Shown here: piece by piece, positions 1,149-49,122 of the stretch
Position numbering within the stretch: position 1 is the first letter of the stretch
How the letters are laid out: every line of letters starts with the position of its first letter
Virus record (IMG/VR): IMGVR_UViG_3300014838_000016
Location: 1-64,000 of that record
Length of the DNA stretch: 64,000 nt
From: a virus
Direction: 5' to 3' (one strand)
Notes under the pieces: generated by a model
Database searches by the model: none
What the model saw: only the letters and a program-made list of their open reading frames with translations
What the model was told of the DNA's origin: nothing
Program-made: the position numbers and the translations under genes

Positions 1149-1412
1149 TTGCTTACCACACTCGACACACAATCTTGGGCAAAAGAATTAGTAACTGGAA
1201 ATGCCCAATTTATTGAGGTTTCCGCAGGCAGTCCGCCCGCTCTGACGATCTATGTCGTCTCGAACGTCAGGGCGGACAACAGCTTCGCCATCCTGCATTC
1301 CATCCCCCCACCGCCCGCAGGCTTCGCCCCGGGCCCCGGCTCCAACTTCCTCACGGTAGCCGCATACACGTTCTCTAGGCCAAACAGCGGCTTCGATCCT
1401 GTCGTAGCCTAA
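1149..1412 (+). CDS. N-terminal segment of the large virion protein (in frame with 1428..6221)
   Basis: Same frame as the next ORF. Reads FDPVVA*DSGTGLLHIIG across TAA 1410-1412. Contains GSPP. Confidence 0.65.
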   Translation: MLTTLDTQSWAKELVTGNAQFIEVSAGSPPALTIYVVSNVRADNSFAILHSIPPPPAGFAPGPGSNFLTVAAYTFSRPNSGFDPVVA

Positions 1413-1427
1413 GATTCGGGCACTGGG

Positions 1428-4400
1428 TTGCTGCACATCATCGGGACGCAGAACAATGCGATCAACTCCCGCTACTCGGACCTGATTAAGTTCACTTTCG
1501 ACACGAACACCCAGACCCTCTCAGGACCGCACATCCTGACAACCGCTTCGGCGGTTCGCGATGGGTACGACATGGTGGTGTTGGCTAACGGACACCGTTT
1601 CATTGCTGTGTCGGTTCTAGACGCCGAAGTACCGCCCCTGTTCCAAGCTCCGATCACGTTTGTGAGTATCGCTACCACGGGAACGCCCGCAGAAACCACG
1701 CTGACGATCACAGCAAGCAACACGTTCTCGGAAGGTCAATTGGCTACCCTGACGGGGCTGACCAACGCCACGTTCCTTAACGGTGTGACGGTGCAGGTCT
1801 TGGATGCATCACCGACCCAGTTCACTGCGGCATTCACCACCAATTTCCCCGACTACTCCGCACCCGATACGGGTCTGGCAACTCCGTTCTATTCTGGCGA
1901 AAACCTGCTCGCATTCGAACTGGATACCAGCGATAACTACGTTACGGGCTCGCTCCACATCGTCGCGTCTTCGCCCGACCGCTCTGGCAATACATTCAGT
2001 GCCGTAAGTTTGGTGACCCCCGATGGGCTGGACATCGAACTTTACTACGGAGCGCACCCGAAGGTTTACAACTTCAAAGATCAGTTGTTTACGATCAACC
2101 TCATCAACCGCACTACGACACTCAGTCCTCCCGTCTCGGGTGTTTGGGATGCCGCGCCGACCAATCTCTTTACGTTCACGTCACGCTACGCCGACGATAG
2201 CCTGACCGTCATACCTGATTTATTTGGCAACCGATATCTTAGCTGGTCATTTTGGACACAGAGCAATCACCCCGAAGGGCTCATCGGTAACGTGGTACTT
2301 GGAACCTTGCAAGTGGGGAATCCATGGCTCTTTAGCCCGATTTATGGTACTTCGCTCAACGGTTCAGTCGTTCAAGCAACCCTGTCGGTCACGCAGTTCG
2401 GCTCTGTGAGCTTGGCGTATCTGCTGGAGCCATTCAATTTAGTGACTCCAATCCCCGCGATGGGGACGTTCCCCGCATACCCGCTTTACGTGGCGACCGT
2501 CACCCCGACATTGGGCATCACAAACACCGCAGGGTGGTACAACCAACAGGTCTTCACATGGCTACGGGGAACAAACGTACCTCTCGATGATGCGAGCACG
2601 TGGGCGTTTGTTGGCGAGGCATCCCGAATCATCCCGGTTACCAATGAGGTACAGACGATCCCAGCCTCGGGGGTGGTTCAGGTAGACAATTTCTCCGATA
2701 CCCCGTTTTCCAACTACTGGGAAAATGTGGGGGTTACTTATTCGCAGACTGGTGTGCCGCTGGTTGAAGTTGCGACTGCACCCGCACAGGGGCAGTATCA
2801 AGTGGAGCCCACCAACGGGCTTTATATCTTTAATTTGGCGGATGTCGGAGCAGGCGTACAGATCAGCTACAGCTACGTGGGCATGATCCTTCCCGTGTAC
2901 GTCTCGCTGTTCAATGTTCCACCGATTGTTGGGATGGAACCGCCCTCGTCGCTGTGTGGTCCGCCTCTGATTGTGTATCGTGATACGGGTTCGCCACTGG
3001 GTCAGCCAGTCACGCTCAGTGCGGCGGGAACCGTAGACCCCGATCAAGACGCCATCGAATATTGGTGGTCAGATAACGATACGTCGGGATTTGTGACACT
3101 GACTCCCAGCGGGTTTTGGACGCTTAGTGATACCTCCGTCCTCTCGGTCAGCCCATTGATTGACAGGCCAGCGGTTGCTTTCAACGTTGGAGTCGCGGCG
3201 GTAGACCTTTACCTCGATCTCACCACGCAACGTCATCCACCCCTGAACGTGTCGGCGTACCAAATACTGAACGCTAGCCCTCTGATGGTTGAGTTCACAG
3301 TGAGCAATACCCCCGTTGGCAACCCGCCTACCAACACCCCAACTTTGCCGCTGGCGATAGGCGAAGAAGTCATGACTTGGAACATTATGGCGCTCAGCCC
3401 ACCGTCGATTATTCAGTCGTTGAACGATCAATTATGGTATGTGACGGCATCAACATCCACGACTTTTACGGCAGTGCCGCTTTGTGACATGGGGGGCAGT
3501 CCTCCATCACCCCCGCCGCCATCTCCAGTCACCACGGAGCTAGGCTCAGCGGCAAACTACGCCCTACTCGCTTACAGCGGGATCACGAATGCCGACCCAT
3601 CAACCTCGATTTCTGGGGGTGTTATTGGCTCAGCCCCAATCATGAGCATCACGGGCTTTAATCCCCCTACGGCGACCGTAGACAACGCCGATGCCCCAGC
3701 CGCACGTACTGCGGGTAATGCGGCATTTCTCTACTACAGTGGGTTGACCCCAACTCAGACGGGTCTTGCAGACCTCAGCACGAATGATGGTGGGGGCGGT
3801 GTGGGCGTCTATCACGCGGGGGTTTTCTCAGGCGGTGCCTTGGACATGCCTACCAGTATCACCCTTGACGCTCAAGGCGACCCGAATGCTGTGTTTGTAT
3901 TCATCAGCGCATCCACCACAGTTCTTGAGAGTGGTGCATCGATTATCCTCGCCAATGGTGCCCAAGCTTCGAATGTGGTCTGGGTGGTTGGTAGTTCTTT
4001 CACTTCTATTTGGAATGGCATCTCGTCGAACATGGTCGGTAACATCCTCGCCTATGCCAGTATCACCCTTGGCGGCGGAATTTTGGATGGTAGAGCCCTC
4101 GCTGTAGGCGGTGGTAATGGAGCAGTCACTATCGCGGTCGCCGAGGCGGTCACTGTGCCCGCGAGCGGCCCGCCGCCGAGCCCAGTTATCGGCGTGACGG
4201 GGTATGCGATCCCACAGTTCCAGTTCTCCGTGATTACAGTAGAAGTGCCGTACAACGCACCCCCCGAGATCGTGTTCCCAAGCCCCGTATGGGAGGCTGT
4301 CGGCTCACCGCCAACAAGCTTTATCCTTCTGGAGCCTGTAACGGTTACTCGGAACACTGAAATTACCATTACGCCCGACGCGATCACCAATCCTGCTGTA

Positions 4401-6221
4401 CAGTTCCCAGTGGAGTACTTCGGCATCTATGACCCAGATGACGTTGTTACTTACTCATGGGCACAAACATCAGGCACCCCCGTTACCATCGTCGGTAGCT
4501 CGAATTTGCCGACGTTTACATTCAAAACGAATGGCATGGCGATACAGGGTGAGAGTCTCATATTTGAACTTACGCTTTGCGATGGGATTGGTTTCGCCCC
4601 TTGCACCACAGTCGAGTTCACGATTCCCGTCGCTGGGTACGATTTCTCGTGTTTTATCGACACCCTTCAGTTGTCGCGGTCGGTTTTCTCAAACAACATT
4701 TCCCAACGTAATTGTCAGGGGACGTGGGGAGATGTGGATATTTCAATTCTCTATAACGACCTCGCCGCCATCAAACGGAATTCGGTAAACGACGGCACTG
4801 ACCGCTACCTTGTGATTTCGCCCTACTCGGTACTCGTGTACGGCGGCATCTATTTGAGCAGCCAGAATCCCATGGTTCTGTTGCGGAAGTTGTTCACCCC
4901 TAACCAGACAAAGATCATAGACGCCGTTCATACCGAGGACGACTATACGCTGGTGCTCGATGAAGCAGGCAACGTGTTTCGTTACACCACAGCCGCCTTT
5001 ATTTACACGGATAATCCCGACACAGTAATCAACCTGTCAAGCATTTCCACATTCACGTTCAACCGCATCCTCTGCACATACAGCTACGCTAATCAGCGAG
5101 TTTTAATGTTCGGTGGACCCGATGGTGTCCTGCTTTTACAAGTCAGAAATGACACCTTGCAGACAACGGGAATCATGGAAATCGACGTTGCATCGAATCA
5201 GTTGTACGGAGCTAATAACGTGCAATTTATTCGTACCGTTGGCGTCGAAAGTCTACGTTCGGGGCAAATCTTGATTGGAAGCATTTTGAACGCACAGGCC
5301 AAAATCACAAGCATTGAGATCGTGAACAACACACTGACGGTGATTTGTGACAATAATTTCCAAATCGGCGATACTGTTATTTTGAATGGACTTCAGCCCT
5401 CGGGCTCCCCACCGTTCACCTCACCCCTGAACGGTCTCGGTGTTCAAGTCATCGCGGCAACAAACTTGTGGTTTCAAGCGTCAATTGTTTATCCAGACTC
5501 CACCGCTTGCACACCCGTGCCCCCAGCACCCGGCATAACCCTGAACATAACTTCGGTAGCCCCCACTGGTGGTGACTTCGCCATCTATACGGGCACAATC
5601 ACGGGTGGTGCTAATAACGCTTATTTTGGGCTCATGGCGACAATTTTGGGGTTCACGAATCCTACGAATAACGGGGTATTTCTTTGCTCAGGCTCCACCG
5701 CCACTACCATGACATTTAACAACGCGGCGGCGGTAACCGAAGGACCATCTCCCGGTACGGTTACGTTGGCCGTTACAGAGACGGGTACTGCAATCGCTAC
5801 GAACGACGGACAGACGTATGAAACCCTCATCAGCTTAGCTCAAGGGGTCATCATCGGTACGTGGAATTCTTCCAAGCTGAAGAATCAATTCGTGAACACG
5901 GGTGAAATCTTGTTTGATCCTAACAGCCAGTACACGGGCTACCCGTTACCTCCAGCCGATGTCACGGCTACCTCCAAATTCACCGCGAATGGAACCGTTG
6001 TGACCATCAGTTGGGTACAGCAGCGTTCCGACCTCGTGTCTTCGTACAACGTTCAGTATTCCACAGATGGAATCAATTTCCCCCAGCTTCAACTGGTGGG
6101 TTCTGGCAATATTCAAAGTATAAACGTACAGTTGGCACCCGGGACGTACTATTTCCGAGTTCAGGCGTTTTCATTGGACGGCACCTCGGATTTTTCAAAC
6201 GTGGCTACAATAACCATCTAA
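1428..6221 (+). CDS. large virion structural/adhesin protein with PKD/Ig-like, DUF3494 and C-terminal FN3 domains
   Basis: PKD-like DPDQDAIEYWW and DPDDVVTYSWAQTSG segments; FN3-like end (VTISW..YNVQYS..LAPGTYYFRVQA); Thr/Ser/Gly rich. Confidence 0.8.
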   Translation: MLHIIGTQNNAINSRYSDLIKFTFDTNTQTLSGPHILTTASAVRDGYDMVVLANGHRFIAVSVLDAEVPPLFQAPITFVSIATTGTPAETTLTITASNTFSEGQLATLTGLTNATFLNGVTVQVLDASPTQFTAAFTTNFPDYSAPDTGLATPFYSGENLLAFELDTSDNYVTGSLHIVASSPDRSGNTFSAVSLVTPDGLDIELYYGAHPKVYNFKDQLFTINLINRTTTLSPPVSGVWDAAPTNLFTFTSRYADDSLTVIPDLFGNRYLSWSFWTQSNHPEGLIGNVVLGTLQVGNPWLFSPIYGTSLNGSVVQATLSVTQFGSVSLAYLLEPFNLVTPIPAMGTFPAYPLYVATVTPTLGITNTAGWYNQQVFTWLRGTNVPLDDASTWAFVGEASRIIPVTNEVQTIPASGVVQVDNFSDTPFSNYWENVGVTYSQTGVPLVEVATAPAQGQYQVEPTNGLYIFNLADVGAGVQISYSYVGMILPVYVSLFNVPPIVGMEPPSSLCGPPLIVYRDTGSPLGQPVTLSAAGTVDPDQDAIEYWWSDNDTSGFVTLTPSGFWTLSDTSVLSVSPLIDRPAVAFNVGVAAVDLYLDLTTQRHPPLNVSAYQILNASPLMVEFTVSNTPVGNPPTNTPTLPLAIGEEVMTWNIMALSPPSIIQSLNDQLWYVTASTSTTFTAVPLCDMGGSPPSPPPPSPVTTELGSAANYALLAYSGITNADPSTSISGGVIGSAPIMSITGFNPPTATVDNADAPAARTAGNAAFLYYSGLTPTQTGLADLSTNDGGGGVGVYHAGVFSGGALDMPTSITLDAQGDPNAVFVFISASTTVLESGASIILANGAQASNVVWVVGSSFTSIWNGISSNMVGNILAYASITLGGGILDGRALAVGGGNGAVTIAVAEAVTVPASGPPPSPVIGVTGYAIPQFQFSVITVEVPYNAPPEIVFPSPVWEAVGSPPTSFILLEPVTVTRNTEITITPDAITNPAVQFPVEYFGIYDPDDVVTYSWAQTSGTPVTIVGSSNLPTFTFKTNGMAIQGESLIFELTLCDGIGFAPCTTVEFTIPVAGYDFSCFIDTLQLSRSVFSNNISQRNCQGTWGDVDISILYNDLAAIKRNSVNDGTDRYLVISPYSVLVYGGIYLSSQNPMVLLRKLFTPNQTKIIDAVHTEDDYTLVLDEAGNVFRYTTAAFIYTDNPDTVINLSSISTFTFNRILCTYSYANQRVLMFGGPDGVLLLQVRNDTLQTTGIMEIDVASNQLYGANNVQFIRTVGVESLRSGQILIGSILNAQAKITSIEIVNNTLTVICDNNFQIGDTVILNGLQPSGSPPFTSPLNGLGVQVIAATNLWFQASIVYPDSTACTPVPPAPGITLNITSVAPTGGDFAIYTGTITGGANNAYFGLMATILGFTNPTNNGVFLCSGSTATTMTFNNAAAVTEGPSPGTVTLAVTETGTAIATNDGQTYETLISLAQGVIIGTWNSSKLKNQFVNTGEILFDPNSQYTGYPLPPADVTATSKFTANGTVVTISWVQQRSDLVSSYNVQYSTDGINFPQLQLVGSGNIQSINVQLAPGTYYFRVQAFSLDGTSDFSNVATITI
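3540..4160 (+). other. DUF3494 (IBP-1 fold) ice-binding-like domain 1
   Basis: LGSAANYALLA...ITLDAQGDPNAVFVF...LANGAQASNVVWVVGSS...GNILAYASITL...GRALA. Confidence 0.9.
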
Positions 6222-6247
6222 CCTCGGTATTAAAGGTAGAGGGTGCC

Positions 6248-36000: not shown

Positions 36001-36939
36001 CGCCCAAATCGTAGGACCACCGAGTGCCGCACCAGCTAGTGCTTGCCAATCGACGTTCATGGCACCATGAAGATCGGTGACGGGGAGGACTTGATCGCCC
36101 GTCGTGTAGGTGACGGTTGCATACGCAGTCTCAGCGATTGCTGGCAATACGCCGAGGTTGAAGGCGTTCGGTGCTGCGTTGTTATTGGTGAGGTTTCCAG
36201 CGACCGTGCTGCTCGTTGGATTGACCACGTTGACGTAGATTGGATTGCCAGCGTTGTTTGCCGCAGTTGTAGCCGAGACAGGAACAGGCGATGCCCCAGA
36301 CACGGCGTTCTGACCCACAAACATTTCGGCATTGACGGCTGGAACCAACACATTTGTGGCCGGTGCAGTACCCCAATCTGTGGGTGTGGGAATAGTTACG
36401 GACCACGGAGCCCCACCTTGCTGTACGGTCCATGTTCCAGATTGAGTTGCGGCTACAGTCCAAGCGCCTGATTGAGTGACAGCAACAGTTCCCGTTACCC
36501 CTACTGACCAAGCCCCACTTTGGATGGCGTTTACAGTCCAAGTTCCGCCCTGATCGGCGACAATCGTGCCGCTTACGACCCATGGCGATGTGCATTGAGT
36601 GACACATATCGAGGCGTTGCTGATGGCGACGGTGCCGCTTACAACCCATGGCGAGGTAGCTTGCGTGACGGGAAGCGAGGACTCAGTGAAGGTGACGGTC
36701 AGCGGATTGACCACGTTGACGTTTAATGCCTCAACTGGCGGGCTTCCAGCCAGTGTTGCGGTGAGGGCTGTGCACGATCCAACGAAGAGCGAGGCATTGA
36801 CGGGGATTGCGGCTGTAACGCTGGAGCAGCAACCTACGTCGGGGCAGGTGCCAAACGCGCTCGGAGGGCTGAGTGGGGTGTTATCCCACTGCGTTATGTT
36901 GCCCGAAAACGATAGACCAAATGGGTTTTGAACTGGAAT
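33052..36939 (-). CDS. long repetitive fibre protein; true start probably ATT at 36939
   Basis: Repeats GTVAVTQSTSPWVVS and LTNNNAAP..VTDLHGA. The frame stays open and repeat-like for 75 codons upstream of GTG 36714. GGGAG RBS before ATT. Confidence 0.8.
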   Translation of the reverse strand: MPVQNPFGLSFSGNITQWDNTPLSPPSAFGTCPDVGCCSSVTAAIPVNASLFVGSCTALTATLAGSPPVEALNVNVVNPLTVTFTESSLPVTQATSPWVVSGTVAISNASICVTQCTSPWVVSGTIVADQGGTWTVNAIQSGAWSVGVTGTVAVTQSGAWTVAATQSGTWTVQQGGAPWSVTIPTPTDWGTAPATNVLVPAVNAEMFVGQNAVSGASPVPVSATTAANNAGNPIYVNVVNPTSSTVAGNLTNNNAAPNAFNLGVLPAIAETAYATVTYTTGDQVLPVTDLHGAMNVDWQALAGAALGGPTIWATAPTGEEVQGVNAYCFQGTSPWVVSGTVAVSGTVAVTQSGAWTVGISAGQTIAVTNAGTFAVQAAQSGTWTVQQGGAPWSFVGTLTNNNAAPNTTNVGVLPAIAESAYTNLTYTTGDQVLPATDLHGALFSDLAAVAGVALGATAVVGYGSTPAAVNVPAVNAFITNTVPVTMASTTITGTVAVTQSTSPWVVSGTVTATIAAPTDWGTAPATSVLVPAVNAELFVGQNAVSGTAPVPISATTAANALGNPIYVDVTNFPTTFGITGTVAVTQSTSPWVVSLASTTITGTVAVDGALSNNNAAPTATLLGVLPAIAETAYNTVTYTTGDMVLPVTDLHGALNQDLQAVAGVQLGATAVTAFGTAPAAVNVPAVNASLFSGTTALTNTGGALNVNVTGFPGGNLSNNTAAPAANNQGSLGYLAATAYTTNTYTTGNQVLAVTDLHGAVNTDLQALAGTALGGPTIWATAPTGEEVIGVNAYCFQGTSPWVVSLASTAITGTVAVTQSTSPWVVSLASTTITGTVAVDGALTNNNAAPTATLLGVLPAIAETAYSTVTYATGDMVLPVTDLHGALNQDLQAVAGTALGATAVVNYGGSPAAVPVPAVNAFITNSPAVTVSGTVAVTQSTSPWVVSLASTTITGTVAVTQSGTWTVQQGGAPWSFQGNLTNNNAAPNAFNVGVLPAVAETAYSTITYTTGDQVLPVTDLHGALNSDVQAWAGTALGAPANFGTTPGAVIAGSVNSSLFIGTVAAVAASAGVQKVGISGGTGASVDSAAGGATAPTNALLTSAEYNTTPLVLTAGQAGALQSDTTGALYVNIEGRKQTYSCFATFTPVAGDIAVLPGSASKTIRITRVEVSMSTSGTAGVEAVTLVKRSAADTGGTSAAMTAVPHDSAYAAASAAPLRYTAAPTLGTAVGTIRGIQFFDDSNATTGANTWLWDFGTRGGAACIVLRGVAQQLCINLGAVIATQTVTVSYEWEEDNS

Positions 36940-37079: not shown

Positions 37080-37862
37080 TTACTGGAATTCCTGAATGCT
37101 CAACAGCGCACAAAAAGTGGGCGGACTACCGCAACAATTATCGGTGTACGAAAGCCCACTATCGGCTATGGCGTTCACCGCAGCGGTCGTGAAATCACTA
37201 CTATCCATCCAAAACGTGCCTCCGGGTGCCAGCGTGATCCCAGCAAAGAGGATGGCTGGATTGCTACCAAAAGCAATGCTCATCGTGACGTAAGACATAT
37301 TCGTCAAATTCAGCCCCTTTCTTGAGGGGTTCGACGCCAATATAACCGTCGATGATGTGTTCACGCATATAGATTCAGGTGCATTGGCGACAGTGGCGGT
37401 CTGCGGGCAACAGGGGGGTGCGGTGGTGACGAACGAATCCGCCGAGTAACCGAAGACCACCGAACCGCAGACGGGCGGGCTTCCACAGGCTGTTCCCGTG
37501 ATCGGACTGAGGAGGATGACCTGAAAATACGGTATGGCGGTGAGGTTGAATTCAGCCGCTAGAAAGGTATTAGCTTGGAGATCGTAAACTGGGCCGACCG
37601 CCCCGCCGATTCCCGGCACATAACCCGTGAGGGGGAACCAGTTCACGCCATCGGTGCTGCCTTGGAACTGAACCGCTCCACCAGTGATGCAGCCTTGATC
37701 TAGGGTGACGATTAGGGTGTTGTACGAGTAGTCGTTGTTTACTATTGTGGCCGTCGTACTGACTGGCGTGGCGCATTCCCATGGCGGAAATGTCGCACCA
37801 CATTGAGTGTTTTCGCCGACACTCAGAACTGCGGAAATACTGTATTGTGACTCGACGTGCAT
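37080..37862 (-). CDS. Cys-rich virion structural protein
   Basis: FQGSTDGVNWF and NPSRKGL..N modules typical of phage structural proteins; 11 Cys. Confidence 0.7.
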   Translation of the reverse strand: MHVESQYSISAVLSVGENTQCGATFPPWECATPVSTTATIVNNDYSYNTLIVTLDQGCITGGAVQFQGSTDGVNWFPLTGYVPGIGGAVGPVYDLQANTFLAAEFNLTAIPYFQVILLSPITGTACGSPPVCGSVVFGYSADSFVTTAPPCCPQTATVANAPESICVNTSSTVILASNPSRKGLNLTNMSYVTMSIAFGSNPAILFAGITLAPGGTFWMDSSDFTTAAVNAIADSGLSYTDNCCGSPPTFCALLSIQEFQ

Positions 37863-37942: not shown

Positions 37943-38092
37943 TTACCTCATGCAGTTGCACAATTTTTCCTTGCGCTTGGTGGTCGCTTTACGGGCATCC
38001 GCACACGTGTTACAGTGATAGGTCACACTGCCATCTTGGTTGTAGACACGCCATTGAGCTTGTTGACCGCACGAACATATTACTTTTGCCAT
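37943..38092 (-). CDS. small Cys-rich peptide
   Basis: CSCG..HCNTC..CNC; overlaps the GT2 stop. Confidence 0.55.
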   Translation of the reverse strand: MAKVICSCGQQAQWRVYNQDGSVTYHCNTCADARKATTKRKEKLCNCMR

Positions 38093-38733
38093 AGCTTTTG
38101 AATTGTCTCCCATGATTCGGGTTTGTAGTCCTTGCTCAGGTGCTTCCTGCAAGCATTGGCCGTATGGATCGCCGCTACGACCAAGGCAGGATCGTTCAGA
38201 TCGTACCTCGCTGCAACAGGCGTCTTCTTTTGAAAATTGTAGTCGGCTCCCGAGTTGATGTTGTCGAACTTGTTTTTCTCCCAAGCGGATTTGCGTATCG
38301 CGATAGATGCCATCCATCCGATCCCTTTTGGACTCGTGTATCGGTACGCCAACGCGCTGCCGTGCTGGTAGTAGTAGAGGGTGCTCGTCCCCGAGACGTG
38401 CAGTGCGGGGTTCTCAATGAGCGGTGTGATCTGGCGGGTGATTCGATTCGCTGGGTACCAGTCATCGTCATCCCAAATAATTCCGAATTCCCCGCTCGAT
38501 AGCTCAAAGCACCTATTTATTTTCGCCCCATGATGTTTTTTCGGGCTTTCATGGAAATATTTGACCCTCGGGTCGGCGGGCAGGAGGTCTTGAATTGGTT
38601 CCGCACCGTCATCCAATATGATTAGTTCGAGGTTGGGGTAGTCCTGAGAAAGAAAACACTCTATGGCCCGAGGAAAGAATGCCCTACGGTTGAAGGTTGG
38701 CGTCAGTGCGCTTACGAGGGGAAAATCAGACAT
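38080..38733 (-). CDS. glycosyltransferase family 2
   Basis: VSALTPTFNR..QDYPNLELIILDDG; WDDDDW (DxD). Confidence 0.92.
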   Translation of the reverse strand: MSDFPLVSALTPTFNRRAFFPRAIECFLSQDYPNLELIILDDGAEPIQDLLPADPRVKYFHESPKKHHGAKINRCFELSSGEFGIIWDDDDWYPANRITRQITPLIENPALHVSGTSTLYYYQHGSALAYRYTSPKGIGWMASIAIRKSAWEKNKFDNINSGADYNFQKKTPVAARYDLNDPALVVAAIHTANACRKHLSKDYKPESWETIQKLWQK

Positions 38734-39565: not shown

Positions 39566-39566
39566 G

Positions 39567-39860: not shown

Positions 39861-39874
39861 ATTGGATAATACTC

Positions 39875-39913
39875 AAAAAGAAAGGGATGCTGGGCAGCAT
39901 CCCCTTTTGTTTT
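39875..39913. terminator. bidirectional intrinsic terminator
   Basis: GGGATGCT-GGGC-AGCATCCC stem-loop with U-tracts on both strands. Confidence 0.75.
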
Positions 39914-39925
39914 CAACCGTTAAAA

Positions 39926-42460
39926 TTAGCCGCAGATCGAAGTCTGTTCGCTCCATCTACATTGTGCAACGGCCTTGGCGCATCCCCTGAAGCTCTTGCC
40001 GGCAATCGTGTAAGTCTTGCCGTTCAAGCAGTCCATGAGACCGTCGTAGTTGCGTGGGAAAGCTGCCGCGTAGCCAGCCCAGACGATGGTGCCGCCCGTG
40101 ACGCCAGTTGATGCGGTATCCACATTGACGTTGCCCGGACCAGCCGCGAATGCGGAACCAGTGAGCGTCCCGCCTTCGATAAGCTGGAACAGAACCGTGG
40201 AGCCGTCCGTGAAGACCTGAATTTCGCGGAGTAGCTGTACAAGAGCCGCCGTGCCATTGCCTTGAATCGACCACAGCGGGACGAACGCAGTCGTCATGAC
40301 CTGAGTGTCGAACGCCGCACCGCTGTCGTAGGAGTAGTACTGGATCGAGCAAGCAAACTGCTCGTCCGCAGGGATGGTGACGAGTGCGCCCGATGGTGAG
40401 AGCGACAAGTCCTGATTCGAGCCGAGCGGGAAGGTGTTCGGCCCGCAAATGACCGTTGCCAGTTCGAGCACTGGGGTTGGCATACCACCCGTGATAAAGA
40501 CGTTGAGAGATGTCTCAGCGGGGCTGCCCATGGTCGTGTAGGTGTTGCCGCATACGTTGAGACAGGTGTTGGTAATATCAACGAAGAGCGGGGTGTCAAT
40601 GGTGTTGGTGACAGTGACGGTGCCCGTGACGGTGACCGTACCAGTGACGCTTACGGTGCCGCCTGTGATATCGACATAGATCGGAGTGTCGAAGGTGTTT
40701 GCAACGTTGACGTTAAGGAAAGACTCTGCTGGGCTGCCGAGCGTTGTGAAAGTCGCCCCGCATACGTTGAGGCAAGCGTTGGTAACGTCAACGTAGATCG
40801 GAGTGTCGGGTGTGTTTGAGTTGAGGGTGACATCACCGCCAGTAACGAAAACGTTGAGTGAAGACTCCGCTGGGCTACCTGAAGCTGTGAACGTCGCACC
40901 AGTGAGGCCGACCGTCCAAGTACCCGCCTGATTTACGAACCAATCGCCGCACTGTGTAGCGCATACCGTGCCGCCAACGCTGAAGACGTTGAGTCCTGTT
41001 TCCGCAGGGCTTCCAACAGTCGTCGTGCCGACGCCCGTGATGTTGATCGTGCCGCCCGTAACATCGACATAAATCGGGGTATCGATGGTGTTCGAGACGG
41101 TAATGTCGCCGCCCGTAACAAAGGTGTTGAGGGAGGATACCGCAGGACTACCAACCTCCGAGAAGGTTGCTCCGCACACATTGATGCAAGCGTTGGTGAT
41201 GTTTACATCGACCGTGTTGCCGATGTCAACGGTGCCAGTGACGGTGATGGCTCCACCCGGCCCCGTACCAGTGACGGTTACGACGCCAGTGATGGTATCA
41301 ATCGTGCCGCCCTCAACGAAGACGTTGAGTGAGGATACCGCTGGGCTACCAGCGACCGTGAAGGTTTGTCCGCATACGTCGATGCAGGCATTGGTTATGT
41401 CAACGTAGATCGGGGTTTCTGGCGTGTTCGAGTTGAGGGTAACATCGCCGCCGAGGACGAAAACGTTAAGACCTGCTTCGGCTGGGCTGCCTACGAGAGT
41501 CGTTCCAATAGGAACGCCGCCAATTTCAGTGATGTTGGTGACCCACGGGGATGTGCACTGGGTGACGCAAATCTCGCCGCCAGTTACAAATGTGTTGAGG
41601 CCGCATACCTGAACAGTAGCGCAATCGGGAGTGGTGACGATTTCCGCAGCCGAGATTGTGACCGCACCATTGTTGGCGAGTGCACGACCAGTAAGTGTAC
41701 CGCCGCCGAGAGTGATGCTTGCAACGGCGAGGATGGTGCCTTCAGTGATTGCACCCGGCCCGATGGATGTCCAAGAACTTCCAGCGACCCAAACGATGTT
41801 GCACGCCTGTGCTCCGTTAGCCAAGAGGATCGTGCCAGCAATCTGCTGAGTGATGCCACTGCCAGCGAGGAACACGAACACTGCATCAGGGTTGCCCTGT
41901 GCATCAAGAGTAATCGGTGTGTTGATGGCGAGGGTTGAGCCGCTCGAATAAACGCCCGGGTAGTAAGTCCCAACGGGGGCACCGATGGAGTTCTGCGTGC
42001 CCATGTCCGCCGTGGTGAGTACCGTTCCCGGCCCCAGACCTTGGTAATAAGCGATGGCGTTTGCTACAGCCGTCTGATCTCCAGCCGTGGCGGTGACAAT
42101 CGCCGCAGGAGCGACAACTACGCCCGGTGGGAATCCGATAATTGAATTTGTTGGGTACGAACCGACATTATCGCCCGAGATGACCGAGGAGCCCGAGTTC
42201 GTTACGCCGCTGGAGCCGAGGAGGGCGTAGTTTGCTGCTGAGCCGAGGTGAGAAAGTGTAGGGGAGATTCCACCCGTGCAAGTTGTTCCCACCCCTTGGA
42301 TGGTGACTTCTGGGATGTTGATGACGCCGACATTGATCGAGGCGACAGCGGGGCTGCCCGAGACTGTAATGAGGGGACAACCCGTAGTATCGTCGTAGAT
42401 ACCAAAGACGGAGATTCCCGTGTACAGCCCGCCCGCACAAGATGAACAATTTTCTGGCAT
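39926..42460 (-). CDS. repetitive Cys-rich fibre protein with a DUF3494 domain
   Basis: GSPA..LNVFV.GG repeats; AAGGA RBS. Confidence 0.85.
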   Translation of the reverse strand: MPENCSSCAGGLYTGISVFGIYDDTTGCPLITVSGSPAVASINVGVINIPEVTIQGVGTTCTGGISPTLSHLGSAANYALLGSSGVTNSGSSVISGDNVGSYPTNSIIGFPPGVVVAPAAIVTATAGDQTAVANAIAYYQGLGPGTVLTTADMGTQNSIGAPVGTYYPGVYSSGSTLAINTPITLDAQGNPDAVFVFLAGSGITQQIAGTILLANGAQACNIVWVAGSSWTSIGPGAITEGTILAVASITLGGGTLTGRALANNGAVTISAAEIVTTPDCATVQVCGLNTFVTGGEICVTQCTSPWVTNITEIGGVPIGTTLVGSPAEAGLNVFVLGGDVTLNSNTPETPIYVDITNACIDVCGQTFTVAGSPAVSSLNVFVEGGTIDTITGVVTVTGTGPGGAITVTGTVDIGNTVDVNITNACINVCGATFSEVGSPAVSSLNTFVTGGDITVSNTIDTPIYVDVTGGTINITGVGTTTVGSPAETGLNVFSVGGTVCATQCGDWFVNQAGTWTVGLTGATFTASGSPAESSLNVFVTGGDVTLNSNTPDTPIYVDVTNACLNVCGATFTTLGSPAESFLNVNVANTFDTPIYVDITGGTVSVTGTVTVTGTVTVTNTIDTPLFVDITNTCLNVCGNTYTTMGSPAETSLNVFITGGMPTPVLELATVICGPNTFPLGSNQDLSLSPSGALVTIPADEQFACSIQYYSYDSGAAFDTQVMTTAFVPLWSIQGNGTAALVQLLREIQVFTDGSTVLFQLIEGGTLTGSAFAAGPGNVNVDTASTGVTGGTIVWAGYAAAFPRNYDGLMDCLNGKTYTIAGKSFRGCAKAVAQCRWSEQTSICG
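41628..42247 (-). other. DUF3494 ice-binding-like domain 2
   Basis: LGSAANYALLGSSGVTNSG..PGVY..ITLDAQGNPDAVFVF..LANGAQACNIVW..GRALANNGAVTI. Confidence 0.92.
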
Positions 42461-42564
42461 GATGATTTCCTTATGAATCTAGTTTTGTATTTGGCGGGCG
42501 TACCCACCCCAGAAAACTTTCCTTACTTTAGAAAACGGAAGTTTGAAAATATCCAAACCCCCAA

Positions 42565-43365
42565 CTAAAACGGTTCCGTCCATTGTATTGAAGCACTTAC
42601 ACAATTTGCCAGCGATCCCATCTGAGTGACCACTAGAGTGTATCGGCTGCCGACTAGAACCGGGGGACTTCCTACCTCCACAAAAGCGTATGGAAAATAT
42701 AATCCTGACTGTAGCGTCACCTCATTAAGTTGCATATAGCCGCTGTTCACAACACGGCCTCCAGAGATTGCCGAGGCTGATGTGTCGTAAACCATAACGG
42801 ACTCCGAGTCAACGCTCTTGAAAGTCGCGCCGATCAATGTTCCGTCTAGCACTATTTGCCAAAGCACCCTTGACCCGTTTCCAGCTAGGTTGAAACCGCC
42901 GAGCAGGGGGAAGTTTAGGGTAATCAATGCAGTGTCGGGCTGGAGAGAGATCAAGGGGACTGGGGTAAGACTGGGTATGATGGTCGGGGTTGTCCCCGTG
43001 TTCACCGAAAATGGATTTCCAGTCAAACCTGCCTGAATAACGGTCGTCGCTAATATGGGGCTGTTGCTGGTCGCGGCTGCGCTGACGTAAACCAACTGTA
43101 TGTCGAACGCTTGGATGACTCCAGCAGCTATAGGCGTGAACAGTGTGAGCGTAAAATTGCTGTTGGCATCTACTGTGGCGGTTCCAGCAGGCGACCCCAT
43201 TGATGAGATATTTATCGCAGTTGGCGGGACGTAACCCTGATTTGATAGGAGGGTGACCGATCCTGTTCCGACTTGCAAAATATCGGAAAGCGGGAAGGTG
43301 AATACGGTTGAAACACCGTCGCCCTGCAACAAGAGTGTGATCGGGACTATTTGTTGTAGTGGCAT
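42565..43365 (-). CDS. virion structural protein
   Basis: GDGVSTVFT N-motif; C-domain paralogous to that of 39926..42460. Confidence 0.75.
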   Translation of the reverse strand: MPLQQIVPITLLLQGDGVSTVFTFPLSDILQVGTGSVTLLSNQGYVPPTAINISSMGSPAGTATVDANSNFTLTLFTPIAAGVIQAFDIQLVYVSAAATSNSPILATTVIQAGLTGNPFSVNTGTTPTIIPSLTPVPLISLQPDTALITLNFPLLGGFNLAGNGSRVLWQIVLDGTLIGATFKSVDSESVMVYDTSASAISGGRVVNSGYMQLNEVTLQSGLYFPYAFVEVGSPPVLVGSRYTLVVTQMGSLANCVSASIQWTEPF

Positions 43366-43366
43366 C

Positions 43367-44605
43367 TTATTCCTCTGTCCATGTAATTCTGACGGTCATT
43401 AGCGAACCCGCTATCGCAAGATTAGAAACGCTGATACCTACAAAGTCGTTTACGCCCCTGAGCGTAATCGCTTGAACACTGTTCACACCGAAATTAAGTT
43501 CAATAGGGGTAGGTCCCACCAACGTGCTCGTGTTGGTGATCCATTGCATAGCCTCGGCTCCTATAACGCCCGCGTTGTAAGTCGTTGTCGTCGGTAGCGT
43601 CGTCCACTGACTCACTATTGCTGTGACTGTTGGGTTCACTGGATCGTCAGGTACAGAAACCACGGTGGTGAATGTTCCTCCAGTGATGGCTGTGAAGCGG
43701 TTTATGACTATCACGCTAGGTCCAGAATTGCCTGTGCTGCAAGCCCAAGAAATTTTCATGTGGCGAATCCTGATTACCTTTGTTGCGGAACCCTGAATCG
43801 TGAAAAACGGCTTGATGGGATCAGCTACGGGTACGAAGTTAATTTGACACGCACGATACGTTGCTTTACGTCCCGTGTCATCCACATACAACGCACCCGT
43901 TGAATCTAAAGTCAATGGCAAAACCGTTCCCGCAGCATAATCGGGTACGGAAATGGACTCCACGACGCCGCCGACTTCCACAGTCAGTGGATTGACAACA
44001 TTTACATCAAGCGCGAACGTTGCTGGGCTACCAGAGTAGCTTCCTTGCAGCCATTGAAGATCGCCATTCGGGTCCTGTATGCCGATACCGATGGGTTGCT
44101 GGCATGTTGGCGGGGCGTAAGCTGGTGCGGGACAAATGGGACTTCCCGCTGGATACAGACCTTGCACTTGTGGATCAGCCCAAACCGCGCTAGTATTTCC
44201 GGGTTGGGAGATGAGAAGCTGACCAGCATGTGTTGGATGGCTGAGGTCTACTTCTACTTTTGTTCCAACTTCGTCAGTGCAGAGATACGCCGCACTCCCG
44301 CACGCCACAATGCCTGTGGCGTCGAAGATGTAGCCACAGTCTGGACTGTAGGTGATGTTGATGCCAGTACCGGGGATGAAGTTGAGGATGTCTTGACACG
44401 GCGACGGAACGCCGTTGATTTCTATTACGACCCCCGTTGATAACGGCAAAAGGCATGGGTCAATTTTGCAGTCAGGTCCAAGCAGAACGATAGCGCCGGG
44501 TTCCGCAGGGCAGCAGCCGCTTACCATAGGTATGCGGTACTCCGTCCAGAACTGCTGGTTCGCTTTGTCCTTACGATCTGCGATTACACTATATATCGTG
44601 GACAT
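43367..44605 (-). CDS. virion fibre/decoration protein
   Basis: C-domain paralogous to that of 33052..36939 (GRK.TY..GSA.K.IRI..W.EE). Confidence 0.75.
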   Translation of the reverse strand: MSTIYSVIADRKDKANQQFWTEYRIPMVSGCCPAEPGAIVLLGPDCKIDPCLLPLSTGVVIEINGVPSPCQDILNFIPGTGINITYSPDCGYIFDATGIVACGSAAYLCTDEVGTKVEVDLSHPTHAGQLLISQPGNTSAVWADPQVQGLYPAGSPICPAPAYAPPTCQQPIGIGIQDPNGDLQWLQGSYSGSPATFALDVNVVNPLTVEVGGVVESISVPDYAAGTVLPLTLDSTGALYVDDTGRKATYRACQINFVPVADPIKPFFTIQGSATKVIRIRHMKISWACSTGNSGPSVIVINRFTAITGGTFTTVVSVPDDPVNPTVTAIVSQWTTLPTTTTYNAGVIGAEAMQWITNTSTLVGPTPIELNFGVNSVQAITLRGVNDFVGISVSNLAIAGSLMTVRITWTEE

Positions 44606-44613
44606 TATTCCTC

Positions 44614-47600
44614 TTAGTTCGGGTTTCCCGTGACCATACAGTTAAATGTTTGTGCCCCGCTCGTGGCGTAGGTGATGGTAAAGCCGCTGTTGCTTGACGC
44701 CGATATATAGAAAGCGCCCGCGTTCGTTGTCGGCGTCACTACGACGATAGGCGTACTGGTGTAGTTCACCGCGTACGTCTTGCTCACGGTCGTGCCCGAC
44801 CCCGAGGTTATGACGCCTGCGGTGTCCCCGTTTGCCGCCGACACGTTGCCGTGACCCGCCTGCATGACGTTGCCCTTGTTGTCAACACTGAACACTTCGG
44901 TCGTCCCCGCCGCACCTGCAAAACAGTCGATCAATTTGTTCGCAGTGCCGAGCAACGCAGTCTCAGTGACGGCGACCTTTAGAGCCGTGTAAGAGCCCGA
45001 TGCCGTAAGGGTCTGGTTGATGGTGGGGGCGATTTGCATGGCAGTGAAGGTGCCAGCACCAGCCGTGGGTGCCCAGTTCAGATGCACGGAGTTGTTCCCG
45101 CCGAGGCTAACCTCTGCGCCGACGTTGATGCCTATGTATGGACCTGCCCCAGTTGTTGCCCATGTTGATCCACCATGCCCCAAGCTAACAAGAGGTTTTC
45201 CACCCGTGTAAGTAGCTGATGGAGACTGGGCGCTGCCAATCTCGGCGGTCCCCAACGCCAATTGATTGTACAAACCAAAGCTAACGCTTGTGCTTTGCGA
45301 CGTTATGCTGCCTTGATTAGTACCTCCTTGATAGCCACGCATTATGTCCACACTGCCAGCAATCGTAGCCACTAAGAGTGGGAAACTAGCATTGCCCCCA
45401 ATGCTAATTCCGCAAGTAGCTCCCGCTGGACCGATGATCTGTGGATCGGTAACGCCGTAGCTTAGCGGCGTCGGTAACTGAATCTGCGCTGCACCTGTCG
45501 TTCCTGTGTGTGCGATGGTCAAGGTGCTGATGGCGTTCGTGCCCGCTGTCATCACCGAGCCTATCGTCCATTGATCGTTGGCTGACGCGCCGTTCCAGTA
45601 CTGTGCAGAAAATCCATGCAGCGGCGATGCGTTGGTCGTGATCGCCGATGCAGTGGTTGTATTCTCCCAATCCCAAAGCACGGCTGAAGTCTGGTTAAAT
45701 GTCGTCGTGAAGCCAGCGTTGGCAAGCGTGAGGTTCCCCGTGGCGTTGGTCAGCGCAGACCATGCGTTGGTGATGGTTGGAGTGCCGCTCAACGCGGCGT
45801 ATGCGATGGAGCCCGCAGCAAAGGAAGTCGTGCCACTGACGGTGATGTTGGCAAAAGCTGCGGTGCCAGTGAATGTGGGAGAAGCTAATGGAGCAGCGCC
45901 TGTGACTTGAGCCACAGTGTAATCGCCTGATGTTGCTACGACTGCACCAGTACGACCGAAGACGCTGGTTACAGGAGCGGTCAAAGCTGTGATATAGCCT
46001 TGAGCTTGCACGTATGCTGTTGTTGCAATTTTTGTGCTGTTATCCGCCGTTGCAGGAGTGGTTGATGTTGGCACTCCAGTGAAAGCAACGTTGCCTGTGA
46101 GGGTAGGAGCACCGGCCCACGATCCGCTTATGGTGCCGCCGCTGGAAGTTAATGTGCCAGAGACAGTTTCCGTGCCAGACATCGTGTAGGCACCGCTCAT
46201 GGTTCCTGTAAACGCCCATGTGCCTGTAGTTGCGAAGGCTGTTACAACTAAGGAGCCAGCCGCAAAAGCTGCCGTGCCTGATACTGCGATGTTATTTGCG
46301 AACGTCACTGTACCACTGAAAGTCGGAGATGCAAGAGGTGCAAGCAAAGCTTCGGCGGCTATAGCACGTCCTCTTTCAACTGAAACTGCGGAGTCCGCGT
46401 AAGCTGTAGTTGCAATCTGAGTGTTGGCTGTTAGCGGTGATGCAGTTGGTGCGGTTGGAATTCCAGTGAACGCGGGGGATACCAACGGTGCCGCGCCAGT
46501 AACTTGAGCTACAGTGTAGTCACCACTTACCGCTATGACCGCACCAGTGCGACCAAAGACCGAAGTGACGAGGCTGCTGGCTGCCGTCAAATACCCCTGT
46601 GCTTGCACGTAGGCTGTCGTCGCAATCCTCGTGCTGTTGTCGCTGGTCAAGGGCGTGGTAGACAACGGTGTTCCAGTGAACGTTGGGGATACTAGGGACG
46701 CTGCACCCGTAACCATGGCGACGGTGTAGTCGCCGCTTACGGCGATAACTACGCCAGTTCTCCCGAAGACCGATTGCACTGGTGCTCCGGCCGAAGTAAT
46801 ATAGCCCTGCGCCTGCACGTAAGCAGTTGTCGCTATTTTTGTGGAGTTGTCCACTGTTGCTGGCGTAGAGGATGTCGGTGCTCCTGTGAAGTTCACGTTG
46901 CCATTTAACGTGGTGATTGTCGCCGTAGTGATAGCAGCGGTCGGAATTGTCACCGTCCCAATGAAAGTCGGAGACGCCAGATATGCGAGCGACGTGTAAT
47001 CACTCAGGTCGGTTGATGCGGGCTGAGTCGCCGTGAACAGCCCTGTGATCGCGGAGTAGGAGTTCAGCCACTCATGCGTGATGGCACCAAAAGTCGAGGG
47101 TAACACAGTGGTGTTTGATAGAGCGTCGGTGATGCCGTACCCAGCAAGCGTAGTCGGATGAGACGACAAGTCCGTGAATGCCAAATCCACCACGCCAATA
47201 AATCCGTTGACGCTTGTGACGGCGGCTGGGGGAAACAGGAGTTCCACCCAATTGCTGAGCACAGAAGCAGGTGTAGCAGCAAGAATGAACGTTTCGTTGA
47301 CATCCGTCCGTACAGCAACTTCCCCCTGAGTATCGGGCAAGGCAAGCATTGCGGCTTGGCTCGCAACTACGTAAGTATTGGTGAGCGGGATAACAGGAAG
47401 CTGCGACGTGGGAACCAATCCGCCAGCGTCCAATGACGCATAGCCGTTCGGTTGCCCCTTCTGTGACAAAGGTTGGAGTAACGTTTCGGCGGCTTCCGCT
47501 CGTGAAGTTTCAACCCCTACCGCTGAATCAACATAGGCTGTCGTCGCGATCTGGTTGTTGTCTGTTAGAGGAGCGGCTGTCGGTGCAACAGGAATTCCTG

Positions 47601-49122
47601 TAAATACAGGGGAAGCCAAGGGTGCTGCGCCCGTAACTTGAGCTACGGTATAGTCACCTGTTGCGGCAACGACCGCGCCTACTCTTCCGAAGACCGAGGC
47701 GACGGGGACAGATGATACAGTGATGAAACCTTGCGACAGGACAAAGGCTGTCGTGGCTATTTGACCCGTGCTGGTTCCGGGCGCGGCGGTTGGTGCCGTG
47801 GGGATACCCGTGAACGCGGGCGAGGCGAGTATTGCCACACTTGCTAGTGAGACGTTGGAGTCCTGCACATTGCCGAACCCGTCCGACGAGATGATGTCGC
47901 CCGCTGGCGCGGTGGACACGTTTGGTAGAGTAGTTGCCGCGACAAAAGTGTTGCCCGATCCAAGCACGGTGATCGAACCTGTGGATGTTACCGTGCCCGT
48001 GGCGATGCCCGCGCCTGATATGGAGATCACCCCAGTAGGAGGCGGTGCCGCCCAGATCGTGATACCCGTTCCGTCCGTTTGCAATACCTGCCCTAACGAT
48101 CCAGCGTTCGTGGGCAGGGTGAGGGTCCACGTGCCTGCGTTCGCTTGTTCGCTGATCGTGACGCCGCCGCTTACCGACCCCTTGAGAATCAATTGCCCTG
48201 ATACCGGACCACCAAGCGTTATGGTACCGTTAGAGTAGTAAGCTTCGGGGGTGCCACTTACCATTGTTCCTGTCGTAGCATAATAAGCAAGCTGTCCCGC
48301 TAGGCCGTTGCTTACAAATCCACTGGACCCAGCCCCACTCTGTGAGGCACCCATTCCCGCCCAGAGAGCCTCCATGTCGTTGAGGAACGCCTGCGCGGGA
48401 GCGCCTTTGAGGATGTAAGCTCGCTCGGAAGTGCTGACATTGGTTTCGGCGTAGTAAAGCCAAACTGTTCGGCTGGATGTATCGGACGCTGCTCCTGAAT
48501 CTGCTGTGCTGTAACCATCCGTGTTGAGTACGGCTACGCCGCTGTCGTTCCCATCACCACAGCCAGCCGTACCGTAGTCGGCGTGGTTGAAATCTGCCGT
48601 AAAACTGGCAAAACCTGAGGGGCTGGCAAAATCGGTGGAGACACTTGTGATGGTCACGGTCTGACCATTAAGGAATGTGGCGTTTACCAAATTCGGGAAG
48701 GTTACGGTCATGCCGACCGTAAAGGTGTTGTTCGCGGTCACCGTCAACACGTTCCCAAGGATTTGAATTCGTGATATTTCGGCGGAAATCGGCGGCATGG
48801 TCGCCGTGAACTGTGCGGGGGTTGCGGTTCGCACATGGACGATCAAGCCATTGAGGAACGTGGCGTTTCCCAACCCGCTGAGAGCCGCGTTCATGCCAGA
48901 TTTGAAGGAGTTGTTGCCAGTTACGGTGAGGGTGCCGCCCGAAATCGCTATGCCAGTGATGCCGGGCATCAGGTTGGCAGGTTGATTGGATTCAAGGTAT
49001 TGGAGGTCGTTTAGATTGACCATGACCTCTTTGGCGATTGGGTCAAAGAGTGGGTCTGGTTTCCAAATCCAGAAAGCAGCGTGAATTGTAGTGTTGCTTT
49101 GGAACCCAAAACGATTAGCCAT
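44614..49122 (-). CDS. tail fibre protein
   Basis: Repeats VTSVFGRTGAV..GDYT and APLASPTFTG.PTAPT..IATTAYV; GGAG RBS before ATG 49122. Confidence 0.85.
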   Translation of the reverse strand: MANRFGFQSNTTIHAAFWIWKPDPLFDPIAKEVMVNLNDLQYLESNQPANLMPGITGIAISGGTLTVTGNNSFKSGMNAALSGLGNATFLNGLIVHVRTATPAQFTATMPPISAEISRIQILGNVLTVTANNTFTVGMTVTFPNLVNATFLNGQTVTITSVSTDFASPSGFASFTADFNHADYGTAGCGDGNDSGVAVLNTDGYSTADSGAASDTSSRTVWLYYAETNVSTSERAYILKGAPAQAFLNDMEALWAGMGASQSGAGSSGFVSNGLAGQLAYYATTGTMVSGTPEAYYSNGTITLGGPVSGQLILKGSVSGGVTISEQANAGTWTLTLPTNAGSLGQVLQTDGTGITIWAAPPPTGVISISGAGIATGTVTSTGSITVLGSGNTFVAATTLPNVSTAPAGDIISSDGFGNVQDSNVSLASVAILASPAFTGIPTAPTAAPGTSTGQIATTAFVLSQGFITVSSVPVASVFGRVGAVVAATGDYTVAQVTGAAPLASPVFTGIPVAPTAAPLTDNNQIATTAYVDSAVGVETSRAEAAETLLQPLSQKGQPNGYASLDAGGLVPTSQLPVIPLTNTYVVASQAAMLALPDTQGEVAVRTDVNETFILAATPASVLSNWVELLFPPAAVTSVNGFIGVVDLAFTDLSSHPTTLAGYGITDALSNTTVLPSTFGAITHEWLNSYSAITGLFTATQPASTDLSDYTSLAYLASPTFIGTVTIPTAAITTATITTLNGNVNFTGAPTSSTPATVDNSTKIATTAYVQAQGYITSAGAPVQSVFGRTGVVIAVSGDYTVAMVTGAASLVSPTFTGTPLSTTPLTSDNSTRIATTAYVQAQGYLTAASSLVTSVFGRTGAVIAVSGDYTVAQVTGAAPLVSPAFTGIPTAPTASPLTANTQIATTAYADSAVSVERGRAIAAEALLAPLASPTFSGTVTFANNIAVSGTAAFAAGSLVVTAFATTGTWAFTGTMSGAYTMSGTETVSGTLTSSGGTISGSWAGAPTLTGNVAFTGVPTSTTPATADNSTKIATTAYVQAQGYITALTAPVTSVFGRTGAVVATSGDYTVAQVTGAAPLASPTFTGTAAFANITVSGTTSFAAGSIAYAALSGTPTITNAWSALTNATGNLTLANAGFTTTFNQTSAVLWDWENTTTASAITTNASPLHGFSAQYWNGASANDQWTIGSVMTAGTNAISTLTIAHTGTTGAAQIQLPTPLSYGVTDPQIIGPAGATCGISIGGNASFPLLVATIAGSVDIMRGYQGGTNQGSITSQSTSVSFGLYNQLALGTAEIGSAQSPSATYTGGKPLVSLGHGGSTWATTGAGPYIGINVGAEVSLGGNNSVHLNWAPTAGAGTFTAMQIAPTINQTLTASGSYTALKVAVTETALLGTANKLIDCFAGAAGTTEVFSVDNKGNVMQAGHGNVSAANGDTAGVITSGSGTTVSKTYAVNYTSTPIVVVTPTTNAGAFYISASSNSGFTITYATSGAQTFNCMVTGNPN

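Follow-up and report, generated by a model that had tools for sequence, protein, structure and literature searches.

The window analysed here, the first 64 kb of the 87,698-bp single-contig virus record IMGVR_UViG_3300014838_000016 (G000; GC content 53%), encodes a set of tail- and fibre-type proteins in which the tetrapeptide G-S-P-[P/A] recurs, together with a small family-2 glycosyltransferase (GT2) encoded among them. The question raised by this locus is whether the tetrapeptide is a recognition site, read by the GT2 or by another partner, or a turn demanded by the fold of the proteins that carry it. The motif is real and highly specific, limited to tail-type proteins, kept by selection across a deep clade of related phages and, judging from a domain inserted at its position, exposed. 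O-glycosylation of its Ser by the neighbouring GT2 is the single most likely mechanism, which we favour tentatively, and a purely structural turn ranks close behind.

The initial annotation had counted 19 copies of GSP[PA] in seven structural open reading frames (ORFs) and one in a non-structural gene. All 19 copies were found in the tail and fibre ORFs of the window, although two of the seven, 1149-1412 and 1428-6221, proved not to be separate genes. They are split by an in-frame TAA at 1410-1412 and correspond to a single uninterrupted ORF in two relatives (1712 amino acids [aa] in G001 and 1024-1025 aa in G002, with Tyr at the TAA position), so they were treated as one gene. The TAA could be a nonsense mutation with a TTG restart, a sequencing error or a read-through codon; no tRNA gene, and hence no suppressor, was found in the record. 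The sole further in-frame copy in the window lies in DnaX (19796), and one more, past the window, belongs to a minus-strand ORF of doubtful standing (80553-81353). The motif starts, the carrier proteins, the GT2 and the largest fibre gene were as follows:

Plus-strand starts of GSP[PA]: 1227, 3495, 4302, 5403
Minus-strand starts of GSP[PA]: 34207, 36736, 37119, 37473, 40517, 40727, 40868, 41003, 41141, 41339, 41480, 42347, 42661, 43186, 44021
1149..6221, plus strand: large virion (tail-type) protein with four GSPP loops, an ice-binding-like domain (3567-4133) and PKD-like and fn3 domains
33052..36939, minus strand: repetitive fibre protein, 1295 aa, with a GSPP-x3-LNVNV unit at 36736 and GSPA at 34207
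37080..37862, minus strand: Cys-rich protein, 260 aa (P0007), whose two loops are flanked by Cys, TAC-GSPP-VCGS at 37473 and NCC-GSPP-TFCA at 37119
38080..38733, minus strand: family-2 glycosyltransferase, soluble, 217 aa (PF00535)
39926..42460, minus strand: fibre protein P0001, 844 aa, with an N-terminal GSPA unit at 42347 and an ice-binding-like domain (41639-42220)
42565..43365, minus strand: virion structural protein, 266 aa (phrog_1645), with GSPA at 43186 and GSPP at 42661
43367..44605, minus strand: tail protein, 412 aa, with one GSPA-x3-LDVNVVNP unit at 44021
44614..49185, minus strand: tail fibre protein, 1523 aa, matching several tail-fibre PHROGs, at the head of the minus-strand block

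Composition, internal repeats or chance might have produced these counts, since a single protein holds eight copies and ten of the 19 are members of one homologous repeat module. However, composition predicted only 0.58 copies in the tail set and 1.1 over the full record, the conservative first-order Markov expectation was 2.17 against the 19 observed in the tail set, and none of 5000 per-protein shuffles attained the genome total of 21 (shuffle maximum 6). With the repeat family collapsed to one, about 10 independent events remained against 0.58 expected (P of about 7e-10), and the enrichment that the initial annotation had proposed to examine genome-wide thus held after correction for composition and repeats. 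About 50 unrelated viral loci, used as controls, carried GSP[PA] at 1-2x expectation, indicating that the null model is fair.

The enrichment recurred in three related records (G001, G002 and G011), and pooling these with G000 gave 83 copies of GSP[PA] against 7.4 expected (11.2x). One-residue variants in the same four records stayed at background, 0.5-1.8x expectation: GTP[PA] 1.7x, ASP[PA] 1.8x, GSP[VLIT] 1.2x, GSA[PA] 1.4x, GAP[PA] 0.7x, GSPS 1.2x and GSPG 0.5x. When all tetrapeptides were ranked without bias by how many proteins of these four records contain them, GSPP took first place (28 vs 3.0 expected) and GSPA second (22 vs 4.1). Variant specificity, shuffles and ranking effectively refuted an artefact, which we regard as extremely improbable. 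The Ser of the motif is encoded by both AGY and TCN codons and the remaining codons vary between sites too, placing the signal at the protein level, as had been claimed from the outset; a DNA-level origin was rejected on the same grounds. A short over-represented motif with unenriched variants, at a position whose exposure we infer from domain insertion, is a sequon-like trait. The Bacteroidota O-glycosylation sequon D-(S/T)-(A/I/L/V/M/T) was not matched, the sites having Gly before the Ser and Pro after it, and a literature search on GSPP or GSPA motifs retrieved nothing relevant.

A purely structural origin has to be weighed against a recognition site from this point on. Under this explanation G-S-P-[P/A] would be a favoured tight turn, the Ser-capped and Pro-stiffened tip of a hairpin in beta-rich trimeric fibres, spread through duplication, domain shuffling and convergence, and the GT2 would be unrelated to it, acting on the host surface against superinfection or on DNA. 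We consider this quite possible. All the sites lie between strand-like segments, including the nine scattered (non-repeat) ones, which are mostly GSPP in unrelated contexts (for example QFIEVSA-GSPP-ALTIYVV, VWEAV-GSPP-TSFILLEP and YAFVEV-GSPP-VLVGSRY), and in the repeat family that holds the other ten the turn would simply belong to the fold. A generic turn, however, should accept Thr for Ser and other small residues at the fourth position, and those variants were all at background; the use of both Ser codon families also counts against it.

The ten repeat-class sites (eight in P0001, one in ORF 33052-36939 and one in ORF 43367-44605) share the context …[TS]-F-T-x-[YA]-G-S-P-A-x-x-[AS]-L-[ND]-V-[YFN]-V-x-[NG]-[PG]…, within a unit of about 45 residues (45-70 spacing); in P0001 the N-terminal unit is accompanied by seven more GSPA-x3-LNV units, 45-70 residues apart (40457-41539). 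The unit is outside the coverage of Pfam and PHROGs, was found in none of 185,579 species genomes, and a profile of 32 units, run against 1.84 billion proteins, matched just 64 representatives. The unit is retained in homologs as distant as 30% identity, Cys-free forms included. Among 188 units aligned from the representative proteins, G, S and P were present in all 177 that bear the loop, the fourth residue being A (143), P (30), S (3), L (1) or T (1), and the alternative state, found in 11 units, was absence of the entire loop. These figures carry some ascertainment bias from a profile built on GSP-bearing units; nevertheless, the L, N and V of the following strand varied more than G-S-P, and the Ser was never Thr in the repeat units. 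A pattern scan of IMG/VR for the YGSPA-type unit returned only the records G000, G001, G002 and G011 and two short contigs, both of which end before the GT2 site, and a metagenome scan with patterns drawn from the ice-binding domain recovered mostly G001-type phage again. By these sequence searches the fibre repeat is new and rare, with an apparently invariant G-S-P turn.

The initial annotation had described the motif as an inserted loop tip, and this was borne out in ORF 33052-36939 by the comparison of TALTNTGG-ALNVNV with TALTATLAGSPPVEALNVNV. In P0001, the normal and the domain-bearing units read as follows:

Normal unit: GVGTT-TVGSPAET-GLNVFSVGGTVCATQC
Domain-bearing unit: GVGTT-C(about 200-220 residues)VQVC-GLNTFVTGGEICVTQC

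The ice-binding-like domain is thus Cys-bracketed and stands exactly at the GSPA loop position, and a close P0001 homolog without the domain also lacks that unit. A folded domain at this position implies that the loop must face outward, and it is from this argument that the Ser is predicted to be exposed. Full-length matches to DUF3494 (PF11999) were obtained on two virion proteins (115.4 and 86.9 bits, cut-off 28.7; E-values 3.5e-33 and 1.9e-24), PDB entry 6eio was also matched, and in the 1149-6221 protein the domain comes after GSPP and a Pro-rich linker. In this phage fibre DUF3494 is inserted where the loop would be, as the neighbour of the motif and not the motif itself. A PDB sequence search with the fibre repeats gave no match outside the ice-binding domain. 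AlphaFold monomer models of the repeat region reached a predicted local distance difference test (pLDDT) score of 33 with 11 sequences and, for three units with 49 sequences, of 69, the latter as an extended chain with almost no strands assigned; Foldseek and VIA-align comparisons of these low-confidence monomer models gave no PDB match. Triple beta-spiral and beta-helix fibres (adenovirus, the reovirus shaft, T4) offer a parallel in their short repeats, with a strictly conserved Gly/Pro turn between the strands of a trimeric fibre; the present repeat differs from them in its longer unit (about 45-70 residues), in the lack of a sequence or fold match (the latter from monomer models) and in the occurrence of the motif outside the repeat as well.

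Site turnover was followed by aligning the 1149-6221 protein with its orthologs from G001 (77% identical) and G002 (35-50% identical). Some sites were common to all, others occurred in one or two of the three proteins with a 4-8 residue deletion in the rest, and at other orthologous positions GTPA, GTPP, GPPP, GLPP or GNPP was found. In the 412-aa tail protein GSPA is invariant across three orthologs, two extra units are present in G001, and one G002 unit has DYSA instead of GSPA. The 42661 site, a strand-GSPP-strand arrangement near the C-terminus of the 266-aa protein, is GSPA in the G001 and G002 counterparts (34-36% identical); a protein search with ORF 42565-43365 returned only the self-match. 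The G001 ortholog of the 33052-36939 protein (63% identical) keeps the N-terminal GSPP unit, and the paralogous repeats of the 34207 GSPA site have STPA or TAPA at the same position. In this ORF no ATG, GTG or TTG occurs before 36714, and an ATT (36937-36939) lies six bases past AAGGGAGAG; since the conserved N-terminal GSPP unit is upstream of the first canonical start, translation probably begins at the ATT at 36939. Overall, sites shift by small indels and substitutions while their density is maintained at 35-77% protein identity, which is typical of a short recognition motif and counts against a turn fixed by the fold, although the substitutions that keep G..PP would also fit a structural turn.

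Related loci were collected with a GT2 profile (52 viral loci) and a fibre-protein profile (20 more). The four enriched records, with the identity of their GT2 and the GSP[PA] counts, were:

G000 (this record): GT2 100%; 20 observed, 1.08 expected
G001: GT2 ortholog 85%; 19 observed, 0.83 expected
G002: GT2 ortholog 57%; 21 observed, 3.35 expected
G011: GT2 ortholog 53-54%; 23 observed, 2.15 expected

With the repeat-module copies excluded, these records were still at about 5-11x expectation. Among the G002 carriers are a protein resembling a baseplate wedge and, in its N-terminal extension, the tail sheath; in general, carriers are tail, fibre, baseplate-wedge and sheath-extension proteins, and replication genes are not among them. 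The proposal that the motif coats the virion was accordingly too broad, the carriers being only of tail, fibre and baseplate type and no head genes having been identified in the record. The comparison set consisted of records with homologous fibre proteins and no GT2-like gene by profile search, for which the observed/expected ratios were:

G003: 1.0
G008 (complete, terminal repeats): 1.2
G009 (91% complete): 2.1
G007: 2.3
G012: 2.2
G006: 3.5

In addition, the fibre locus of G004, a complete 456-kb record without a GT2-like gene, held 0 copies against 0.27 expected. Three of the GT2-free records are 91-100% complete, two of which were counted whole and the third at one locus only. The LNV-type units of the GT2-free records are loop-free (for example TTALTNTGGA-LNVNV), and homologous units that function without the loop in these phages speak against a turn required by the fold.

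The GT2 is intact and lies within the minus-strand fibre block (32357-49185), as the initial annotation had placed it. It matches PF00535 over residues 8-121 (E=2e-20; 73.6 bits vs a cut-off of 23.3), and D41 and WDDDDW of a DxD-type donor/metal site are invariant in the sequences from the window and from loci L003, L005 and L006. PDB profile matches (chondroitin synthase, heparosan synthase and SpsA) covered residues 5-133. Of the genes in the fibre block, it alone is recognisable as a candidate for protein modification, and its orthologs in G001, G002 and G011 are all found among fibre genes. No other GT2-like gene and no multi-transferase/O-methyltransferase cassette was detected among the scanned ORFs of the record; searches of about 70 ORFs against Pfam, PHROGs and NCBIfam, motif-free clade-shared ORFs included, found no prolyl hydroxylase, kinase or second transferase. 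A homing endonuclease gene (phrog_655 / HNH; 38726-39565, minus strand) is inserted just upstream of the GT2, between it and a 112-aa ORF, with an 8-nt overlap with the GT2 start, and is absent in the syntenic G001.

Distant phage homologs of the GT2 (32-39% identical) were mostly located in transferase/methyltransferase cassettes of high-GC siphovirus-like contigs, resembling the mycobacteriophage arrangement, and the nearest bacterial homologs (30-32% identical) came from metagenome-assembled genomes (MAGs) of Acidobacteriota and other groups. The motif was not enriched around either set. Acidobacteriota MAGs with GT2 relatives (L149-L151) belonged to Holophagae and to Bryobacteraceae / Ca. 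Sulfopaludibacter, sequence relationships that give a weak hint of the host group. In three high-GC siphovirus-like contigs the gene for a 141-aa tail-tube-like protein (L003:4676-5101, L004:5842-6267 and L005:8414-8839) immediately follows a lone GT2 homolog (34-39% identical), and the protein carries GSPA at residues 18-21 and ends in a Thr-rich stretch (…TTTP); this adjacency is suggestive, although it represents a single event in proteins 55-59% identical.

These observations can be assembled into a mechanism. G-S-P-[P/A] would form the tip of short outward loops between beta-strands in tail-fibre and baseplate-type proteins of a large uncultured phage clade, and would be kept by selection as a recognition element, beyond the requirements of the fold alone. 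The most likely reader would be the 217-aa GT2 from the fibre gene block, which may use a host nucleotide-sugar in the cytoplasm to glycosylate exposed GSP[P/A] loops at the Ser hydroxyl, either ahead of fibre assembly or in the course of it, so that the tail would then bear a pattern of O-linked sugars. Action of the GT2 on protein, Ser as the acceptor, the identity of the sugar and the purpose of the coat (shielding, stability or host-surface contact) are the inferred parts of this scheme. In its most complete form, a portable four-residue acceptor loop written into the hairpin tips of tail proteins and read by a single small phage GT2, the proposal is a possible one that we hold with some reserve.

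Several observations weigh against it. First, the co-occurrence that the initial annotation had proposed to look for was present in all four enriched records, but these also have in common NusG-like, Nudix, helicase and other genes, meaning that they form one clade and that the association between GT2 and motif amounts to approximately a single evolutionary event; enrichment that follows one clade is equally what a structural turn would give. The link between GT2 and motif is therefore circumstantial. Second, G013 has a 53% identical GT2 and only 1 copy against 0.63 expected, a case of GT2 without motif that also favours the structural alternative; the record, a fragment that is 26% complete, has its GT2 within a multi-transferase cluster and encodes an LNV-type fibre that lacks the loop. 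Conversely, G006 and the metagenome locus L060 have a mild GSPP excess with no GT2 in the available DNA. At some orthologous sites T, P, L or N stands in place of the Ser with G..P-P/A retained, as expected of a turn, and the largest fibre (1523 aa, 44614-49185) has no GSP[PA] copy. The GT2 resembles known enzymes, WcaA included, only in the donor-binding half of about 130 residues, and what those enzymes make is polysaccharide; the same Pfam, PHROGs and NCBIfam searches of about 70 ORFs revealed no sugar-activating genes, and a strong terminator-like hairpin (39906-39881) stands between P0001 and the downstream genes, including the GT2. Finally, published readings of transferases in the fibre region of myophages prefer modification of the host O-antigen or of DNA (PMC7029224; bioRxiv 10.1101/2023.12.21.572611), which again suits a structural turn beside an unrelated GT2. 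The reading of the motif as a sequon thus stood as far as a protein-level, virion-specific, loop-tip signal that travels with a GT2 is concerned, and the step to a sequon for this particular GT2 stayed hypothetical, given the shared ancestry, G013, the Ser substitutions, the generic GT-A half and the published alternatives.

The specificity, exposure and turnover of the motif would apply equally well to a tag read by a partner other than the GT2, either as a docking site for a virion or assembly protein or as the target of a host glycosylation or prolyl-modifying enzyme. Such a reader could hide among the ORFs without a recognisable family, about half of the total. The 260-aa Cys-rich protein beside the GT2 shares its clade-restricted distribution: these two genes, with the NusG-like and Nudix genes, were the only ones that the four enriched records all have and the other records all lack. 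However, no candidate enzyme or binding protein was identified among the scanned ORFs of the record, and the Cys-rich protein itself bears the motif and in relatives has its N-terminal domain fused to GSPA repeats, so that it looks like a fibre part. A partner of this kind is unlikely in our judgement.

The fibre genes form a single minus-strand block running from 49185 to 32357, and the second large virion-type gene (1149-6221) is on the plus strand. The order of the block is:

Up to the endonuclease: 1523-aa tail-fibre, 412-aa, 266-aa (phrog_1645) and 844-aa (P0001) genes, the 112-aa ORF, homing endonuclease
After the endonuclease: GT2, 260-aa Cys-rich protein, 1295-aa repeat protein, 231-aa ORF

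Strong terminator-like hairpins with T-runs were located between successive fibre genes at 39906-39881 and 42563-42536, both on the minus strand, the former overlapping the start of the 112-aa ORF (39562-39900). A C-terminal domain (…ALYV-x-x-x-GR-x-x-TY…GSA[ST]K[VT]IRI…) is common to the 43367-44605 and 33052-36939 proteins and is also found in G001. Further GIY-YIG, HNH or endonuclease VII genes are at 10779, 14240, 58110 and 62224 in the window and at 73260, 77546 and 83667 past it. No capsid, portal, terminase, sheath or tube genes were recognised across the whole 87,698-bp record. The relatives are fragments of 51, 142 (42% complete) and 265 kb (78% complete); myovirus tail genes are present on the 142-kb and 265-kb fragments, the latter encoding a tail sheath and a baseplate wedge. 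Unrecognised head genes and large relatives with myovirus tail genes suggest that G000 may represent only a portion of a larger myovirus genome. A megablast search of the fibre block against phage GenBank records gave no match.

Glycan coats on virions have been described for a few mycobacteriophages, in which they dampen recognition by antibodies; we know of no definition of how the target sites are chosen in them. Two bacterial systems offer further comparisons. The heptosyltransferases Aah and TibC are cytoplasmic and decorate Ser in short inter-strand loops of the AIDA-I and TibA repeats, and the scheme proposed here is alike in having an enzyme act on Ser loops of a repetitive beta-rich surface protein; they differ in belonging to a non-GT2 family, in transferring heptose and in targeting bacterial adhesins, and no sequence relation to them was found. 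The Listeria enzyme GmaR, a GT2-type flagellin O-glycosyltransferase, is also cytoplasmic and acts directly on exposed Ser/Thr of a filament protein. Enzymes of the GmaR type have extra domains absent from the 217-aa GT2, so the likeness is limited to the shared fold family, and to our knowledge no defined GSP[P/A] site has been described for them. In mycobacteriophages, phage-encoded transferases modify capsid and tail-tube proteins (Freeman 2023, via PMC11600133; PMC12582341). The virion glycosylation of clusters F and O is similar to the present case in that the transferases are phage-encoded, with genes inside the structural region or close to it, and are considered to act on virion proteins; it differs in the use of several tandem transferases and an O-methyltransferase, with capsid and tail-tube subunits as targets. 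In the present phage one GT2 stands alone, its candidate targets are of fibre, baseplate and sheath type, the site would be a defined four-residue loop, and the modification is a predicted one.

Even if the motif is purely structural, a new and rare fibre repeat with an invariant G-S-P turn stands, as does the finding that this turn can accommodate grafts of entire domains. If the proposed mechanism is true, any fibre could gain or lose sugar sites through an indel of 7-8 residues, and G-S-P-[P/A] would be the first sequon to be defined for the glycosylation of tailed-phage virions. It would provide a testable rule (peptide, enzyme and nucleotide-sugar), a compact tool for site-specific protein glycosylation, and a means by which the glycosylated parts of phages would be predictable from sequence.

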